Source: a virus (Duplodnaviria > Caudoviricetes). From it: a stretch of DNA of 64,000 bases. The position numbers and the translations under genes were made by a program. A model generated the notes under the pieces. It made no database searches. It saw only the letters and a list, made by a program, of their open reading frames with translations, and had not been told where the DNA came from. Positions 18,862 through 26,062 of the stretch are shown here, one piece after another. How positions within the stretch are numbered: the first letter of the stretch is position 1; each line of letters begins with the position of its first letter. Location: positions 1 through 64,000 of IMG/VR virus record IMGVR_UViG_3300037466_003849; one strand, 5' to 3'.

Positions 18862-19212
18862 AAACAGACCAGGCGGTGCGGAGTGTGGACAAAATGTCCA
18901 CACCGCGTCGAAAAAATTTTCGCGCCCTAAGACATTAAAGACGTTAAGAGAGTAAAGACGTTAAGTCGTTAATGTCTTTGAAGAGAGTGAAGTCTTTGAA
19001 GGCGTTGAAGACGTTACGAGTGTAATTCGAAACCGAAATCGAAGTCCAACACCTCTGAACATTCGGCGTGTCGACGTGGCGTCGAACACAAACAGACCGA
19101 GCGGTGCGGAAAGTGTGGACACGGTGTGGACATCAATGTCCACGATGCCGATCCATCTTCACCGACGTTGATCTATTCACCGGGAATTCCGATGTCCCAC
19201 GTTGTCCCACGA
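18862..19212. other. Putative replication origin
   Basis: Non-coding; DnaA-box-like 9-mers; AT-rich TAAAGACGTTAAG repeats; flanking direct repeat of about 30 bp. Confidence 0.65.
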
Positions 19213-19244
19213 AGTCCATCCATCTAAACCGAGGTAAACCGATA

Positions 19245-19586
19245 ATGGCGAAGAAGGCCCCGGTGACACGGTCGGCCCCACGCCGTGGCACCTGCACCGT
19301 CTGCAAGGAGAAGATCGTCCTCTACCTGCGAGACGGTCTCGACATCGTTCTCGATGCCCAGCCGATCAACCTGCGAGGCGAGGCGGCGTCACTACTGGCA
19401 GGCCATCAGACCTGGCACTGGATCGAGGGCAGGATGCATCGGCGATCGGAGCCGTATATCCGCCTGGAGCCACACCCGATGCTGGGCACGATTCATCGAC
19501 TGCACCACTGCGGCGAGATCGTGGCCGACGAGCACAAGTTCGTGCCGAGAAAGCCGGATTACGACAGCGATATCCCACCCTTCTGA
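19245..19586 (+). CDS. Zn-binding hypothetical protein
   Basis: CTVC...LHHC; ends DIPPF. Confidence 0.65.
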   Translation: MAKKAPVTRSAPRRGTCTVCKEKIVLYLRDGLDIVLDAQPINLRGEAASLLAGHQTWHWIEGRMHRRSEPYIRLEPHPMLGTIHRLHHCGEIVADEHKFVPRKPDYDSDIPPF

Positions 19587-19710: not shown

Positions 19711-20202
19711 GTGGGCCACACCTATGCCTACATCGACAAAAACGGAAATTATCGGTGGACGGAGGCGAGGCGAGTCGGAAACCGCATCGTCGGCCACGAC
19801 GGCATCGCAGTCGAAATAGGGGCTGGCGTCGATCGCGACGAAATCGAGATGCGCCGGGGCACCGGCCGCTCCGCGACCAACTGGTTCTCCTTCACGATCC
19901 CCGCCGATCCCACCTCCGAGGGGCTGTATCACCCGGCCAACTGGGCCGCCTTCCTCGGTGCCGCGTTCCGCATCTACCGCCAGGAGGTCAACGACGACGC
20001 GGAGGCCACGGCCAAGGCCCGCAAGTCCGACGAGGAGGAGGCTGCCGCCCTGGCCGCCGCCCACGAGGCCCGGATCGCCTCCCTCGCCGCCGATCTGCGC
20101 GAGAGCACCGTGCCCTACACCGGCGCCCCATCCGCCGACGAGTACTACACGCACATGGCGCGCATCGCCGTCGCCCACCTCGATGCCGGAGTCGGCCGAT
20201 GA
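19711..20202 (+). CDS. Paralogue A of unknown family
   Basis: RBS GAAAGGA, GTG 19711; motif shared with B-G. Confidence 0.7.
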   Translation: MGHTYAYIDKNGNYRWTEARRVGNRIVGHDGIAVEIGAGVDRDEIEMRRGTGRSATNWFSFTIPADPTSEGLYHPANWAAFLGAAFRIYRQEVNDDAEATAKARKSDEEEAAALAAAHEARIASLAADLRESTVPYTGAPSADEYYTHMARIAVAHLDAGVGR

Positions 20203-20618
20203 GCCGCCTCGCCGACGAGTACTGGGGCCTGGACGAGAACTGCATCGCCGTCTGCCACAGGCTCCACCGCAACGGCGACATGATCGTGGACGAGACCGGG
20301 CGCTTCATCGAGATCCCGCCGCCGGTCGAGGGGCAGGTCGACCAGGCCCTCCTCGACACGATCGACAAGCGCTCGAAGGCCCGGCTGCGCGAGGGCTACC
20401 GCAACTTCACCCTCGGCGCCTTCTACTCCGGCGCAGTCGAATTCGTGAAGGCCGAGGCCCGCGACCAGCTCCCCCCGGCTCGGCAGCCCGACGCCGACAC
20501 CGAGCTCGCGAACGCCTTGCGCGCCAGCGTTCCCCGCCTCGGCGGCGTCACCGGCGATGACTACTACCTCACCCTCGCCCGCGCCGCCCGCGCTCACCTC
20601 GAAGGGAAAACCGCGTGA
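20199..20618 (+). CDS. Paralogue B of unknown family
   Basis: ATGA overlap; shared motifs. Confidence 0.7.
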   Translation: MSRLADEYWGLDENCIAVCHRLHRNGDMIVDETGRFIEIPPPVEGQVDQALLDTIDKRSKARLREGYRNFTLGAFYSGAVEFVKAEARDQLPPARQPDADTELANALRASVPRLGGVTGDDYYLTLARAARAHLEGKTA

Positions 20619-21088
20619 CCGACTACAACTACCTCGCCGTCGCGAACAACGGCCAGCTCCGGCAGCACGGCATCGTCCGTAGCGGCATCTACCTCACCAA
20701 CGTCGCTGCGCCGCATGGCCAGAACTTCGAAACGGCCGTGGAAGTGGTCCAGGTGTACGCGCCACTGAAGCCGACGAACAACTCGGTCGACTTCTACCGC
20801 AAGCAGATCGTCAAGCGCCGCGCCGATGTCCTCACGCAGATCAACCAGGCCCGCAACGAGCTCAACGTGCTCGACGCCGTCCTGCCGATCTACGACGCCG
20901 AGATCGCCGCCGCCGAGAAGGCCGCCAAGGAGGACGAGGCCAAGAAGGCGCAGCAGGAGAAGGACCGCGAGTTCGCCGCGACGATCCTCAACGCCGCCCG
21001 CGCCTACGACAGCCAGGGCGGCACCACCGAGGACTTTGCCGCCCGTATCCGCCGGATCGTCGCCGACGACGAGGCGGGCGAGCGCTGA
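20615..21088 (+). CDS. Paralogue C of unknown family
   Basis: GTGA overlap; shared motifs. Confidence 0.7.
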   Translation: MTDYNYLAVANNGQLRQHGIVRSGIYLTNVAAPHGQNFETAVEVVQVYAPLKPTNNSVDFYRKQIVKRRADVLTQINQARNELNVLDAVLPIYDAEIAAAEKAAKEDEAKKAQQEKDREFAATILNAARAYDSQGGTTEDFAARIRRIVADDEAGER

Positions 21089-21090
21089 CC

Positions 21091-21537
21091 ATGTACTACA
21101 CCCACGACAAGGACGGCAAGCAGCACAGCTGGTCCATCAAGCGTGAAGGCGCCACCCTGAAGGGTCACCGCCGCGTCATCGTCACAGACCCCGCCTCGCT
21201 CGGCGCGAACCCGATCCGCACCCGCGCGAACATCGAGGAGCACCTCCGGCGCTCACGCAACGATGTCGCCTTCTATACCGACGCGCTGCGGCATTTCGAC
21301 CGCGAGGTCGAGGAGTCCGAGGCCGCTCGCATCAACGCCGAGCTGACGGCGAAGGCCAGCGCCGACGCCCAGAAGGTCTCGAAGTTCCTTCAGACGGTGG
21401 GCGAGGCCATGAAAACGGCTACGCGCGTGATGAATTCGGAGACCATCTCGCCCGAGCTCGTCGCCGAGGCGGACCGCCAGTGCGCCGCGCTGGCCGAGGC
21501 GATGGACACCGTGCTGACGATCGAGGAGCCGCGGTGA
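21091..21537 (+). CDS. Paralogue D of unknown family
   Basis: ATG 3 nt after upstream stop; shared motifs. Confidence 0.7.
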   Translation: MYYTHDKDGKQHSWSIKREGATLKGHRRVIVTDPASLGANPIRTRANIEEHLRRSRNDVAFYTDALRHFDREVEESEAARINAELTAKASADAQKVSKFLQTVGEAMKTATRVMNSETISPELVAEADRQCAALAEAMDTVLTIEEPR

Positions 21538-21962
21538 AGGAACACAGTTACGCCGCCCGCGCCCCCAAGGGCGACGCCGTCGTCACCTACACCATCCGCC
21601 GTGATGGCGGCTCTCTCGGAGGCCACATCTCCGTCCTGGTGCCCGACCCGGCCCGCCACGCCGAGGCCCTCGTCGCCCGAGGCCGCCAGGACCTGCTCGA
21701 CGCGATGAAGTTCGAAGCCGAGCGAATCCGGGAGCACAAGGAGCGCTTCAGCTTCTACAGCTCGGCGCTGGCCCACTACGACGAGGAATGTGCCGAGGTC
21801 GCCGAGGCGGCGAAGAAGGCCCGCGTCGCCGAGATCCGCGACGAGCTGAGCGACCTCTGGCGTCAGCCCGGATCGGTGCCCGCATTCCTGACGACTGTCG
21901 CCCGCTACATCGCCGACAACGTCCCGCCCGACGCCGCGCCGCTGAAGGCGGACCCGCGGTGA
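21534..21962 (+). CDS. Paralogue E of unknown family
   Basis: GTGA overlap; shared motifs. Confidence 0.7.
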   Translation: MKEHSYAARAPKGDAVVTYTIRRDGGSLGGHISVLVPDPARHAEALVARGRQDLLDAMKFEAERIREHKERFSFYSSALAHYDEECAEVAEAAKKARVAEIRDELSDLWRQPGSVPAFLTTVARYIADNVPPDAAPLKADPR

Positions 21963-22645
21963 ACGACAGCGTCGGCCACCACGCCATGGGGATCAACCCC
22001 TTTCTGCCCCAGCCACTTCCGAACCCGCTCACCCTCGCCGACCTGGCCCATTTTCGCTATCTCGGCTTCGCACCAGGAGGAATCCCTATGGTCAACAACC
22101 CCTACTCCCGCGGCGGCGTCATTCCGATCCCTGCGACCAACCCCTACGACTTCGGTGGCATCCTCTCGCCAGGCATGACCGCCGTCGCGGCCCCCCGCTT
22201 CACCGCCTACGAAGGCCGCGACAACGAGGGCAAGAAGGTCACCTACTACGTCCGCCGCGACGGCGACGACATCGTGACCTCGTTCGGGATGCGCATCCCC
22301 GCGCCGAAACCCGGCAGTGGCGTCAATGTCGTCGAGAATCTGCGCAGCCTGCGTGAGAAGGCCGAGACCCGCAAGGCCAACTTCGAGCGCCAGGCCGCCC
22401 ACTGCGCGCGGATGATCGCCACCTACGAGGCGGCATCGAAGCTCTACGCCGCGGAGGCCGCCGACGCCGCCCGCGAGGAGCGCCGCAGGGGCATCGAGAA
22501 GCTTGCCGGTGACCTGATGAGCGAATACGGCAAGGCCGCCCCGTTCACCGGGGTCAGCGTGCCCGGCTTCGAGAAGCTCGCCGAGCACGTCCAGAAGCTC
22601 ATCGACGACGCCGTCGCCGCCGTGACGAAGGCGGGTGTCCTGTGA
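21959..22645 (+). CDS. Paralogue F of unknown family, with Pro/Gly-rich N-terminal extension
   Basis: GTGA overlap; shared motifs. Confidence 0.7.
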   Translation: MNDSVGHHAMGINPFLPQPLPNPLTLADLAHFRYLGFAPGGIPMVNNPYSRGGVIPIPATNPYDFGGILSPGMTAVAAPRFTAYEGRDNEGKKVTYYVRRDGDDIVTSFGMRIPAPKPGSGVNVVENLRSLREKAETRKANFERQAAHCARMIATYEAASKLYAAEAADAAREERRRGIEKLAGDLMSEYGKAAPFTGVSVPGFEKLAEHVQKLIDDAVAAVTKAGVL

Positions 22646-22953
22646 GCGTCGGCAAGCAGATCGCCCTCGCGATGGGCGTGGTCGCCGCGATCGTCGTCAT
22701 CAGCGTCGGCGGCTGGCAACTGCACTGGTGGATGGCCCGCCACGGCGTCAACAACCGCTACCAGGTCAACACGTCGTCGCAGGAGTACCAGTCGAGCCTG
22801 GTCACCCAGGAGCGCGACCGCGCGCTGGCCTTCGACAAGTCGCAGGACACCGAGCAGCGCGCCGTCATCCGCGCCCAGTTCTGCCAGGTGCTGGCCGACA
22901 TCCACCCCATCCCCGCCGACATCGAACTCGATGCGGCCCACCTCAACTGCTGA
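22642..22953 (+). CDS. Membrane-anchored protein with extracytoplasmic helical domain
   Basis: N-terminal TM helix; two Cys near the C-terminus. Confidence 0.75.
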   Translation: MSVGKQIALAMGVVAAIVVISVGGWQLHWWMARHGVNNRYQVNTSSQEYQSSLVTQERDRALAFDKSQDTEQRAVIRAQFCQVLADIHPIPADIELDAAHLNC

Positions 22954-22968
22954 AAGGCCACTGCCACA

Positions 22969-23541
22969 ATGAAACTCGGAACCGTCGCTCTCGGGAGCGC
23001 GATCCTGTCCGCCGGTATTCTCCTGACCGCCGCGTGCAGCCAGAACAACACCGCGGCCAGCCACGACCAGGCGGTGCTCAACCAGGCCCTCGACGCCTTC
23101 CAGCGCACCCAGCCGATCCCGCAGGCGACCTGGTCGCAGATGCGCGAGTCGCTGATCCAGATCGAGAACGCCCGCATTCACGGCATCGCCACCACGACCT
23201 TCTTCTACAACATGGGGTCGAACGTGCCGATCAAGTCGTGCGCCTCGACCGGTTTCCCGATCCCGGCCACCGCGCAGCTGACCAACCCGTCGCAGCTGTC
23301 CTGGCTGGTCGCGAACCAGAACACCATCGACGGCGTCATCGGCCAGATGGAGCCCAACGGCACCTTCACCGGCGACTCGGCGGGCACCTACGTCACCTGC
23401 GCCGGGCCGAACGGCTCGACGTATGAGACCTACTGGGAAGGCCCGGTGGAGACCGAGGGCGGCCCCGCCCACTACGACCCCGACGCCCGCCAGATCGTCC
23501 TCGACGGCGCGCCGACCGTGACCGCGAAGGGCGGAAAGTGA
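22969..23541 (+). CDS. Lipoprotein
   Basis: Signal peptide with lipobox LTAAC; GFPIPATAQLTNP..QMEPNG motif. Confidence 0.8.
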   Translation: MKLGTVALGSAILSAGILLTAACSQNNTAASHDQAVLNQALDAFQRTQPIPQATWSQMRESLIQIENARIHGIATTTFFYNMGSNVPIKSCASTGFPIPATAQLTNPSQLSWLVANQNTIDGVIGQMEPNGTFTGDSAGTYVTCAGPNGSTYETYWEGPVETEGGPAHYDPDARQIVLDGAPTVTAKGGK

Positions 23542-24359
23542 TGACCGAGACCGCAACCACCGCAACCACCGCGGCGACCGCCACCGACGCCGTCATGGTC
23601 TCGGTGCCCGGCACCGACACCCCGCTGGTCGCCCAGCTGATCAACGGCGAGCCCTACGCCGCGCTGCGCCCGATGTGCGACGCGATCGGCCTGGACTACT
23701 CCAGTCAGTGGTCGAAGCTGAAGACCAAGTCGTGGGCGAACGTGGCGATCAGCCCGACGGTTGCCGCCGATGGCAAGGTCCGCGACATGGTCCTCGTCGA
23801 CCGCCGCACGCTGACGATGTGGCTGGCGACGATCACCGAGACCCGGATCGCCCCGGATCTCCAGCCGACCATCCGCGCCTTCCAGGCCGAGGCCGCCGAC
23901 GCCCTCGACGCCTACTTCCACGAGGGCGGTGCGATCAACCCGAACGCCACCGACGACCAGCTCGACCGGCTGACCGAGCGTGCCCGCGCGCAGATGGAGC
24001 TCATCCAGTCGGCGAAGGGAATCATCAACCCCGAGCACCTGGAGACGAGGGCTCGTCTGGTGCTGGCCCGCGGTCTCGGCGAGGTGCCCGAGATCGAACC
24101 GGAGGACATGCCGCTCTACACCCAGACCTACCTGGAGGACCGCGGCGTCGACCGCGAGCGTATCCAGCGGATCGCGGGCGCGTTCGGCAAGAAGGTCAAG
24201 ATGGCCTACCGGCTGAAGTACGGCAAGGAGCCGGGCAAGTACCCGATCACCGCCCTCAACGGTCAGGTCCGCATGGCCTACGCCTACGTCGAGGCCGACC
24301 GGCCGCTGCTCGACGAGATCTACCGGGAGTTCTACGCCGACGAGGCGGTGAAGTCGTGA
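23538..24359 (+). CDS. Antirepressor (P22AR N-terminal domain)
   Basis: NGEPYAALRPMCDAIGLDYSSQWSKLK..W; LTMWLATI. Confidence 0.85.
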   Translation: MMTETATTATTAATATDAVMVSVPGTDTPLVAQLINGEPYAALRPMCDAIGLDYSSQWSKLKTKSWANVAISPTVAADGKVRDMVLVDRRTLTMWLATITETRIAPDLQPTIRAFQAEAADALDAYFHEGGAINPNATDDQLDRLTERARAQMELIQSAKGIINPEHLETRARLVLARGLGEVPEIEPEDMPLYTQTYLEDRGVDRERIQRIAGAFGKKVKMAYRLKYGKEPGKYPITALNGQVRMAYAYVEADRPLLDEIYREFYADEAVKS

Positions 24360-24877
24360 CGATGCCCGAGAATGCCAACGGCAGCAACGGATTCCTCGTC
24401 GGAGGTGGTGGCGGCTCCGGCCCAGGGTGGCGCGATCTTGCCGCCGTCGGCGCCCTCGCCCAGCCCGTCGGCAGCTTCCGCTGGATACACCCCGGCGGCG
24501 AGATGAACTCCCTGCGCGACCTCTACTTCAACGGAAACGCGGTCACCGCCATCGACTCGTACATCAACGCCTATGTCGGCGACGATGCCACGAAGGTCGA
24601 CCAGGCCCGCAACGAGATCGCGGAGTCGATCCGCCGCGCCCGCAACCGGCTGGCCTTCCTCGAAGCCGCCAAGGAGATCCACGACGGCAAGATCGCCGAG
24701 CTCGACAAGGCCAAGCAGGCTGATCGCCTGGCCGAGGTCGAGGCGCTGTGCGACAGCATCCGCGAGGTCTGGATCAACGACCCCAGCCCGATGGCGGGCG
24801 ACCGCATCCACCGTGTGGCCGAACATGTCCAGACGCTGATCGAGGCCGCCAAGGCCGGAAAGGACGGCGCGAAGTGA
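24356..24877 (+). CDS. Paralogue G of unknown family
   Basis: GTGA overlap; shared middle and C-terminal helices. Confidence 0.65.
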   Translation: MTMPENANGSNGFLVGGGGGSGPGWRDLAAVGALAQPVGSFRWIHPGGEMNSLRDLYFNGNAVTAIDSYINAYVGDDATKVDQARNEIAESIRRARNRLAFLEAAKEIHDGKIAELDKAKQADRLAEVEALCDSIREVWINDPSPMAGDRIHRVAEHVQTLIEAAKAGKDGAK

Positions 24878-25665
24878 GCACCGCCCGCTACACCGTGCTG
24901 GCCGTCCCCGGCACCAGCGAGTCCCACGTCGGCGACACCCGCATGGAGCCCGTCGGGATGCTGAGCTACGTCACACGCGAGCTCGACCCGGCCGTCTTCG
25001 AGTGCCTGAATGTCGGCTACCCCAGCGCTTTCGGCTACCCGATGAGCGAGGATGAGTCGCTGGCGATGGCACTGAAGTCGCTGGAGGCGATGATCCGGGC
25101 GACGCCGCTGCCGGTGATCCTGCTCGGCTACAGCCAGGGCGCCCAGGTGGTGCGCAAGCTGCTGTGGCTGCTGTGCCAGCGCGATCTCAGCGTTGCCGAC
25201 CTGGAGGTTGCCGGGGCCGGTCTCATCGCCGACCCGAACCGCAACGCCGGACTCAACGAGGGTCCGGTGCTGGACGGCTCCGGCATCGCCGGTGGCGGTG
25301 GACCGTGGCCGATGGGGATGCCGATGTGGGAGCTGGCGCTGCCGAATGACCCGATCGCCAACGCCCCCGCCGACAGCCTGCTCCGGCCGGTCGCCGACGT
25401 GCTGAAGTACTTCACCGCGGTGAACCTGCCGAGGTGGGGCGCCCAGATGGCCCACATGCTGCTCACCCGCGAGGGTTGGCAGCCCGGCGACTACAAGGTC
25501 ACCCCGGTCACCGTGGAGCTGGCACTCGACGAGCTCGCCAACTACACCGTCCGCGGCTGCCACACCGCCTACGCCACAACGCATTTCCCCGGCACGGACC
25601 GCACCTACTGCGAGCACCTGGCCGACCTGATCACCGCACGATTCGGTGCAGGTGGAACCGCCTGA
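24874..25665 (+). CDS. Cutinase / PE-PPE / LysB-like serine hydrolase
   Basis: VPGTSES, YPSAFG, LLGYSQGA nucleophile elbow, LIADP, DPIAN, HTAY. Confidence 0.85.
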   Translation: MSTARYTVLAVPGTSESHVGDTRMEPVGMLSYVTRELDPAVFECLNVGYPSAFGYPMSEDESLAMALKSLEAMIRATPLPVILLGYSQGAQVVRKLLWLLCQRDLSVADLEVAGAGLIADPNRNAGLNEGPVLDGSGIAGGGGPWPMGMPMWELALPNDPIANAPADSLLRPVADVLKYFTAVNLPRWGAQMAHMLLTREGWQPGDYKVTPVTVELALDELANYTVRGCHTAYATTHFPGTDRTYCEHLADLITARFGAGGTA

Positions 25666-26062
25666 CGACTGGCGGCAGCACGCGCAGTGCATCGGCTCCG
25701 ACCCCGCGGCCTGGGACACCTCCTACTACCCGGAACCCCCAGGCCAACGGGCGGAGCTCGCCCGCAGGGTGTGCCGGGGCTGTGAGGTCCGCCAGGAGTG
25801 CGCGCAATGGGCGCTGAGCGTCCCGCACATCCACGGCGAGTACCTGACCGGCGTCGTGGTCGCCGGATTCGCCATGCACGGCAACCCCAGCGCCACCCGC
25901 GCGAACGAGAAGATCCGCCGCCGCATGGCCGCCCGCTACGACCTCCCCTATTCCAGCGCCTCGGCCACCGTGCGCCGCGCCGCCGCCAAGACATACGAGC
26001 AAGGACAAACCGATGACCATCAAGGAGAACCTGACCAAGGCCCTGGAGCAGCTGAGGGCTGA
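25652..26062 (+). CDS. whiB: Second WhiB-like protein
   Basis: DWRQHAQC..DP...ARRVCRGCEVRQECAQWAL. Confidence 0.85.
   Translation: MEPPDDWRQHAQCIGSDPAAWDTSYYPEPPGQRAELARRVCRGCEVRQECAQWALSVPHIHGEYLTGVVVAGFAMHGNPSATRANEKIRRRMAARYDLPYSSASATVRRAAAKTYEQGQTDDHQGEPDQGPGAAEG

Follow-up and report, generated by a model that had tools for sequence, protein, structure and literature searches.

A Candidate Host-Interaction Array of Seven Divergent Proteins in a Nocardia-Type Actinophage

Introduction

Tandem arrays of fast-diverging paralogues in the accessory regions of phage genomes are a known sign of an arms race with host immunity. To our knowledge, very few such arrays have been characterized, hardly any of them in actinobacteria. 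In phage T4, the protein NrdC.5 overcomes the host defense Dsr1 (PMC9391042). The present study concerns an array of seven genes, designated A to G, between positions 19,711 and 24,877 of a 64,000-nucleotide stretch of DNA (the window), taken from the start of a 72,121-bp IMG/VR virus record (IMGVR_UViG_3300037466_003849; Duplodnaviria, Caudoviricetes) rated complete by CheckV. Sequence comparison identifies A to G as paralogues of one orphan protein family, and their variable copy number and rapid divergence suggest accessory factors that may engage variable host components.

The gene layout of the window is that of a siphovirus-type, temperate-type actinophage, and the host type is Nocardia-like bacteria. 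As defined here, the family comprises 13 members in four phage lineages; some of the alignments, the tree, and the structural model used 11 sequences.

Results

Paralogy of the seven genes

A sequence-only reading of the window had proposed that A to G are highly divergent copies of one unknown family. All seven open reading frames (ORFs) were found on the + strand at the proposed positions (Table 1), with each of the quoted motifs present. The G+C content at third codon positions was 0.8 to 1.0 in exactly each of the proposed frames, the frame switching at every junction. Because this signal follows the frames of A to G, the large minus-strand ORFs of the ORF list are high-GC artifacts.

Plain BLASTP similarity among the seven proteins was weak, at 14 to 42 bits. 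When each protein was searched with a profile hidden Markov model (HMM) from which it had been left out, the scores were 31.6 bits for A, 9.2 for B, 17.8 for C, 34.0 for D, 45.4 for E, 30.0 for F, and 25.5 for G. The best of 1,000 shuffles per gene reached 6.1 to 11.1 bits, and none attained the real score; mutual similarity at 9 to 45 bits was therefore significant for every copy, B included. With the full profile, the top score among 733 six-frame ORFs of the window, used as decoys, was 6.5 bits, and a search of the window and of the whole record with the same profile found no eighth copy.

A stricter pairwise null was obtained by comparing Smith-Waterman scores with those of 300 shuffles confined to 15-residue windows, which keeps the local composition of the charged helix. 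Under this null, 7 of the 21 pairs gave z values of 4.6 to 11.1, and the observed score was reached in 0/300 shuffles. The pairs concerned (A-B, B-F, C-G, D-E, E-F, E-G, and F-G) together connect all seven proteins. Similarity was also seen in the DNA: 27/31 nucleotides (nt) are identical (87%) between C and G just upstream of the central motif, and 21/27 between A and G over that motif. The leave-one-out, decoy, and strict pairwise tests all lay above chance, and on this evidence A to G are judged to be true paralogues of one orphan family, in agreement with the sequence-only reading.

Tandem duplication is the likely origin of the array, since the closest pairs are the neighbors A-B and D-E and since the D/E and E/F junction sequences, spaced 425 nt apart, are alike. 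The tree of 11 members was saturated, with most terminal branches at 3 to 6 changes per site and only D+E moderately supported, so that the order of duplication cannot be given.

Relatives and copy number

The family was traced in three lineages besides that of the window. When the seven-member profile was run exhaustively by hmmsearch against 1.84 billion representative proteins, only two non-self proteins were returned at E <= 0.001; a library-wide E-value threshold of this kind misses members scoring 20 to 35 bits, and the family is possibly wider than found. One lineage is a prophage with a single copy (P0008); it resides in the 7.9-Mb chromosome CP046171.1 of Nocardia brasiliensis (PMC11191271), and its Prim-Pol is 65 to 66% identical to that of the window. 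Another is represented by P0009, which occurs both in assembly GCA_900155145.1 and on a contig of a forest-soil metagenome (project PRJEB12502); three member genes are consecutive there. The last is a second Nocardia genome (G644), which has two tandem members and came to light when 267 genomes of the genus were searched.

Samples of 401 genomes of the order and 401 of the family contained a single true match, the N. brasiliensis genome. Weak matches of 19 to 23 bits in Mycobacteriales genomes (L014-L017) proved to be helicases and a histidine kinase, aligned over the helical part only, and were discarded as false positives; further weak single matches arose in the genome searches (L024-L026, L029). 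Among 50,697 GenBank phage records, tblastn gave no match for A and a chance-level one for E (E = 0.7), apart from which only the antirepressor encoded within the array was matched by megablast and tblastn. A word-indexed homologue search recovered the window's own proteins only, plus the known soil-contig member in a second search. Related-locus searches returned nothing with Prim-Pol, nor with the Cys/His-rich gene described below among genome contigs.

The members occupy a common slot. In 4/4 lineages they lie immediately upstream of the phage WhiB gene, an alpha/beta-hydrolase gene standing between in two, and in 3/4 the slot starts downstream of a conserved gene for a Cys/His-rich protein of 113 amino acids (aa). 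The number of copies in the slot is 7 in the window, 3 in the soil contig, 2 in the second Nocardia genome, 1 in the N. brasiliensis prophage, and 0 in more distant phages; the variation in copy number for which the sequence-only reading had suggested an HMM search was thus found. In Rhodococcus phage Shagrat and in one IMG/VR contig, Prim-Pol is followed by the Cys/His-rich gene and no family member is present; Jflix2 has this gene in another context, likewise with no member. The four displayed three-copy soil contigs (L009/L010/L011/L012) all end within a few hundred bases upstream of the array, reaching no more than ~120 nt past the start of the Cys/His-rich gene. These shared ends suggest a repeat or a strain-variable breakpoint, and only with an interruption could the soil array extend beyond three copies.

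Between phages, family members are at most ~32% identical over partial alignments, and no clear orthologue pairs could be drawn. The sole positional signal, a faint one, is that G is closest to the last soil-contig copy before the hydrolase. The identities of neighboring genes to the window copy are 70% for the PAPS-reductase-family gene, 65% for Prim-Pol, 61% for the hydrolase, 42 to 61% for WhiB, and 46 to 48% for the Cys/His-rich gene. Judged by these alignments, the members have diverged far faster than their flanking genes (42 to 70% identical).

Predicted protein architecture

The N-terminal head carries the motif Y-x6-G-x8-(R/K)-x-G-(D/N)-x-(I/L) ... (I/V)-x-x-P, in which the Gly is invariant in 13/13 members. 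The beta motif that had been read in all of A to G is clear in A to F and degenerate in G. The head is followed by a central helix, (A/S)F-x2-AA-x3-(Y/F)-x2-E, with Ala and Glu columns at least 90% conserved; as had been claimed, it is present in A to G, and it is conserved across alignments of the 13 members. After it come a variable stretch rich in Ala, Glu, Lys, and Arg and a C-terminal helix opening with an aromatic residue. At least two tail types are recognizable, YYxxxARxAxAHL in A, B, and the N. brasiliensis member and xLAEHVQxLI in F, G, and the last soil-contig copy. Helix and tail lengths vary between members, and in P0009 the tail is absent altogether.

The nearest relative of a copy changes from segment to segment. 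The head of B is closest to that of F and its tail to that of A; the center of G is nearest C, and its tail is nearest F and the last soil-contig copy. Such patterns may reflect exchange of modules between paralogues, or only uneven rates.

An AlphaFold2 model of E, made with an 11-sequence alignment, had a mean predicted local distance difference test score (pLDDT) of 82.8 and a predicted template modeling score (pTM) of 0.50. It placed strands at residues 4-9, 16-24, 27-29, and 35-37 and helices at 44-110 (67 residues; pLDDT ~90) and 115-129, and the head folded alone gave the same strands (pLDDT 70). The predicted build is thus a four-strand beta head of ~40 aa, the conserved central helix, a variable charged helical tail, and a short terminal helix. 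Of the charged coiled coil and C-terminal helices described in the sequence-only reading, the long charged helix and the C-terminal helix are predicted by the model; the coiled coil was not confirmed, a crude test of heptad a/d positions showing no periodicity above shuffles (z <= 2.6). Isoelectric points are 5.4 to 6.2 (mildly acidic), with F at 8.6. On direct reading of the A to G sequences, no membrane or secretion signal was seen in the family members.

F and G also carry N-terminal extensions. The start codon of F is uncertain, with candidates at 21959, 21986, 22088, and 22172, and a public gene call for F (P0007, 118 aa) omits both the extension and the head domain. The extension of F (~80 residues; 21986-22200) is rich in Pro and Gly and contains three NP[FY] motifs. 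G may start at GTG 24356 or ATG 24362, and its extension (24362-24470) is Gly-rich.

Searches for known families and folds

The sequence-only reading could assign no known family, and Pfam, PHROG, NCBIfam, PADLOC, PDB, and fold searches were likewise uninformative. Pfam gave only a sub-threshold match, for one member (E) of the seven. The best E values were 0.1 or worse in PHROGs, 0.019 in PADLOC (a single member), and 0.0028 in NCBIfam (a single member), and across these three libraries no family was matched by more than one member. When PDB sequences were searched with a profile, nothing fell below E = 0.14.

The suggested modeling and fold comparison was carried out on the E monomer and yielded the head and long helix with no informative fold match. 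Foldseek of the full model against PDB and BFVD found nothing below E = 0.18 and generic long helices only, and VIA-align against 48,161 chains gave only generic long helices and coiled coils (Z <= 6.9). The head-only model matched PH, SH2, and NusG-KOW folds at noise level (VIA Z <= 3.4; Foldseek E > 1). In the ESM Atlas there was no usable match for E, and for the protein P0010 the feature scores were all <= 0.81 and the TM scores all < 0.4.

Gene neighborhood

The G+C content of the window is 61 to 70%. Genome order runs from a SpoU methylase through DnaN, a PAPS-reductase-family gene, and a 758-aa Prim-Pol to the array region, and from there through the alpha/beta-hydrolase, WhiB, DUF6197, and a HAD phosphatase to the large terminase, the portal, and a 1936-aa ORF at the tape-measure position. 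The array is accordingly placed downstream of the replication genes, within a long translationally coupled operon on the + strand (Table 1). No sigma-70-like promoter and no + strand terminator were found inside the array block.

Overlaps of 4 nt (ATGA or GTGA) occur at A/B, B/C, D/E, and E/F, and C and D are separated by a 2-nt gap. The mostly 4-nt junctions noted earlier are therefore real within the array, and they continue through unrelated genes as far as WhiB: the same overlaps are found at F/membrane protein, lipoprotein/antirepressor, antirepressor/G, and G/hydrolase, and the hydrolase/WhiB overlap is 20 nt. Because the overlaps extend through unrelated genes, translational coupling is a property of the whole operon, not specific to the family, and is no evidence for a complex of the paralogues.

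G is parted from A to F by three unrelated genes, an insertion that is not present in the three related lineages. It directly precedes the esterase/hydrolase and WhiB, the position that the last soil-contig copy also holds.

Table 1. Positions of the paralogues and neighboring features in the window
Feature	Coordinates	Strand	Length	Remarks
Intergenic region	18862-19244		383 nt	Low G+C (~0.5); between Prim-Pol and the array-bearing operon
Cys/His-rich gene	19245-19586	+	113 aa	Upstream slot border; 46-48% identical in two family-bearing related phages
Paralogue A	19711-20202	+	163 aa	GTG start, GAAAGGA 7 nt upstream; tail type YYxxxARxAxAHL
Paralogue B	20199-20618	+	139 aa	ATGA overlap with A; lowest profile score; full-length alignment to A (z 7.2)
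Paralogue C	20615-21088	+	157 aa	GTGA overlap with B; 12-residue head insertion; central helix nearest that of G
Paralogue D	21091-21537	+	148 aa	Start 2 nt past C stop; nearest relative is the adjacent E
Paralogue E	21534-21962	+	142 aa	Member used for structure modeling
Paralogue F	21959-22645	+	up to 228 aa	Family domain ~22205-22642
Insert between F and G	22642-24359	+		Three genes unrelated to the family
Membrane protein, single-pass	22642-22953	+		Within F-G insert
Lipoprotein-like protein	22969-23541	+		Signal peptide ending LLTAAC; within F-G insert
P22_AR_N antirepressor-like protein	23538-24359	+		Within F-G insert
Paralogue G	24356-24877	+	171-173 aa	Family domain ~24473-24874
Alpha/beta-hydrolase	24874-25665	+		Downstream border; 61% identical in soil contig; only in window phage and soil contig
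WhiB	25646-26062	+		Downstream border; homologue after the family in all four lineages

The Cys/His-rich protein at the upstream border has the invariant pattern C-x2-C ... H-x3-H ... H-x2-H-x-C-G, from which it is probably zinc binding; it has no Pfam family. In several phages of Nocardia and Rhodococcus, its gene comes after Prim-Pol. Homologues lie at 9447-9803 of L008, 116-466 of L019, 3914-4300 of L020, and 8001-8360 of L022, and others, annotated as hypothetical, occur in REQ1, Shagrat, Jflix2, and Madraxi. The alpha/beta-hydrolase has sub-threshold matches to Abhydrolase_6, PE-PPE, and cutinase families and stands immediately ahead of WhiB in the early operon, not in a lysis cassette.

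Discussion

We favor, at a probability of about 0.4, the reading that the family is accessory and probably engages variable host components, in host takeover or in counter-defense, because its copy number varies, because it diverges fast relative to its flanks, and because some relatives lack it. A to G would then be dispensable, fast-evolving proteins, each copy probably acting alone, possibly as a homo-oligomer, and each binding a different host protein as a host-takeover or counter-defense factor. The head and central helix would provide the common scaffold, and the variable surfaces would set specificity. A bolder form of this reading, which we offer tentatively and regard as somewhat doubtful, is that the array is a counter-defense or host-takeover battery built on a head-plus-helix scaffold not seen before, in which every copy would neutralize a separate immune or housekeeping protein of Nocardia-type hosts, and that the slot upstream of WhiB behaves as an "accordion," expanding and contracting with the defenses of the host. 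Of the two roles offered in the sequence-only reading, effectors or decoys of an anti-defense kind are the better fit to the copy number, fast divergence, and dispensability, though the PADLOC search revealed no anti-defense homology.

Several points weigh against the favored reading. The host target and the anti-defense activity are putative, being drawn from the genomic pattern, and the structural model rests on an 11-sequence alignment (pTM 0.50). The mild acidity of the proteins does not suggest DNA mimics. Fast divergence and variable copy number could also reflect relaxed constraint, and the constant adjacency to WhiB may indicate a function connected with phage transcription, not host defense. 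Since the four phages are related to each other, their shared synteny is not independent evidence.

The other role in the sequence-only reading, that A to G are subunits of one hetero-oligomeric helical assembly whose stoichiometry is set by coupling, lost ground and is unlikely, while still the best of the alternatives. Chains of 4-nt overlaps do join the genes, a long helix is predicted, and the central helix conserved in all members offers a possible common interface. The same type of overlap, however, joins unrelated genes of the operon, and G is set apart from A to F by three of them. Related phages carry one, two, or three copies, or none. The lengths of helix and tail are unequal, P0009 having no tail, and the crude heptad test gave no signal above shuffles.

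Slightly less probable than such an assembly is that the family serves the phage's own transcription or replication, for example as a partner of WhiB or the Prim-Pol replisome, each copy being adapted to a particular promoter or stage. A member stands at most one gene upstream of WhiB in 4/4 lineages, and the slot comes after Prim-Pol and an intergenic region richer in A+T, as such a role would suggest. This synteny may be merely inherited in lineages that are related, and Shagrat and the IMG/VR contig possess Prim-Pol and the upstream neighbor gene but not the family. Nor did the Pfam and NCBIfam searches find a DNA-binding or RNA polymerase-binding family among the members.

It is improbable that the copies are diversified superinfection-exclusion or defense modules, expressed from the prophage and protecting the lysogen from other phages. 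Three of the four lineages were indeed found in assembled bacterial genomes, where at least two are integrated prophages, and membrane, lipoprotein-like, and antirepressor-like genes stand inside the array. Its position nevertheless is deep in the rightward lytic operon, coupled to genes of the replication module and away from the immunity region; there is no PADLOC match, and on sequence reading the family members themselves have no membrane or secretion signal. Finally, it is very improbable that the copies lack distinct roles and persist, functionally redundant or decaying, as remnants of duplication under relaxed constraint: extreme divergence, a saturated tree, and absence from relatives would fit, but all seven frames are intact with a strong third-position G+C coding signal, and the same head and central-helix positions are kept in 13 members of four lineages, which argues for purifying selection on the common core.

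The family is new and very rare, and its evolutionary behavior is of an already known kind. A single scaffold, with no detectable relatives or known fold, is present in seven copies here and in one to three copies in the slot of close relatives. The resulting copy-number series is a natural test set for whether copy number and sequence track host defenses, and the members are candidates, seven to thirteen in number, for binding proteins of the Nocardia, Rhodococcus, or Mycobacterium type. Should the function prove mundane, the array would still be a clean case of lineage-specific expansion of a gene family in a phage.

Three known systems resemble the family in some respect. The MazG and PRA-PH families, all-alpha NTP pyrophosphohydrolases, have sub-threshold Pfam matches over the charged helix of E, and 1/11 aligned members had weak NCBIfam matches. 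The assignment of E to either was rejected as compositional, because the match is confined to a single copy, because it falls below the cutoffs (19.7 bits versus 22 for MazG and 21.3 for PRA-PH), because the orphan family fails to conserve the acidic metal-binding pattern, with only one Glu column kept, and because the model of E has one continuous helix in contrast to a four-helix bundle.

In having a beta head at the N terminus followed by a long helix and a helix that folds back, the layout loosely resembles that of XRCC4, XLF, and SAS-6, as an analogy only. Chains of XRCC4/XLF complexes matched the head-only model at Z 2.9 and 2.7, in the noise range, and SAS-6 was among the helix matches. 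The head of XRCC4 is larger, at ~115 residues, compared with ~40 residues and four strands predicted for the orphan family.

The T4 nrdC.3-nrdC.6 region differs from the present array in several ways. NrdC.5 belongs to Pfam DUF7235 (PF23882), for which none of A to G gave a match even at E <= 1. The orphan proteins are half the size (140 to 230 aa versus ~300 to 340 aa), the host phylum differs, and the copy number of the orphan family varies between related phages. A role in overcoming host defense is experimentally shown for NrdC.5, whereas for the orphan family such a role is proposed. The likeness lies in the kind of locus and in the predicted build of its products: in both cases, copies of a protein with a globular head and a helical tail would lie in a part of the phage genome that is early or accessory and not essential.

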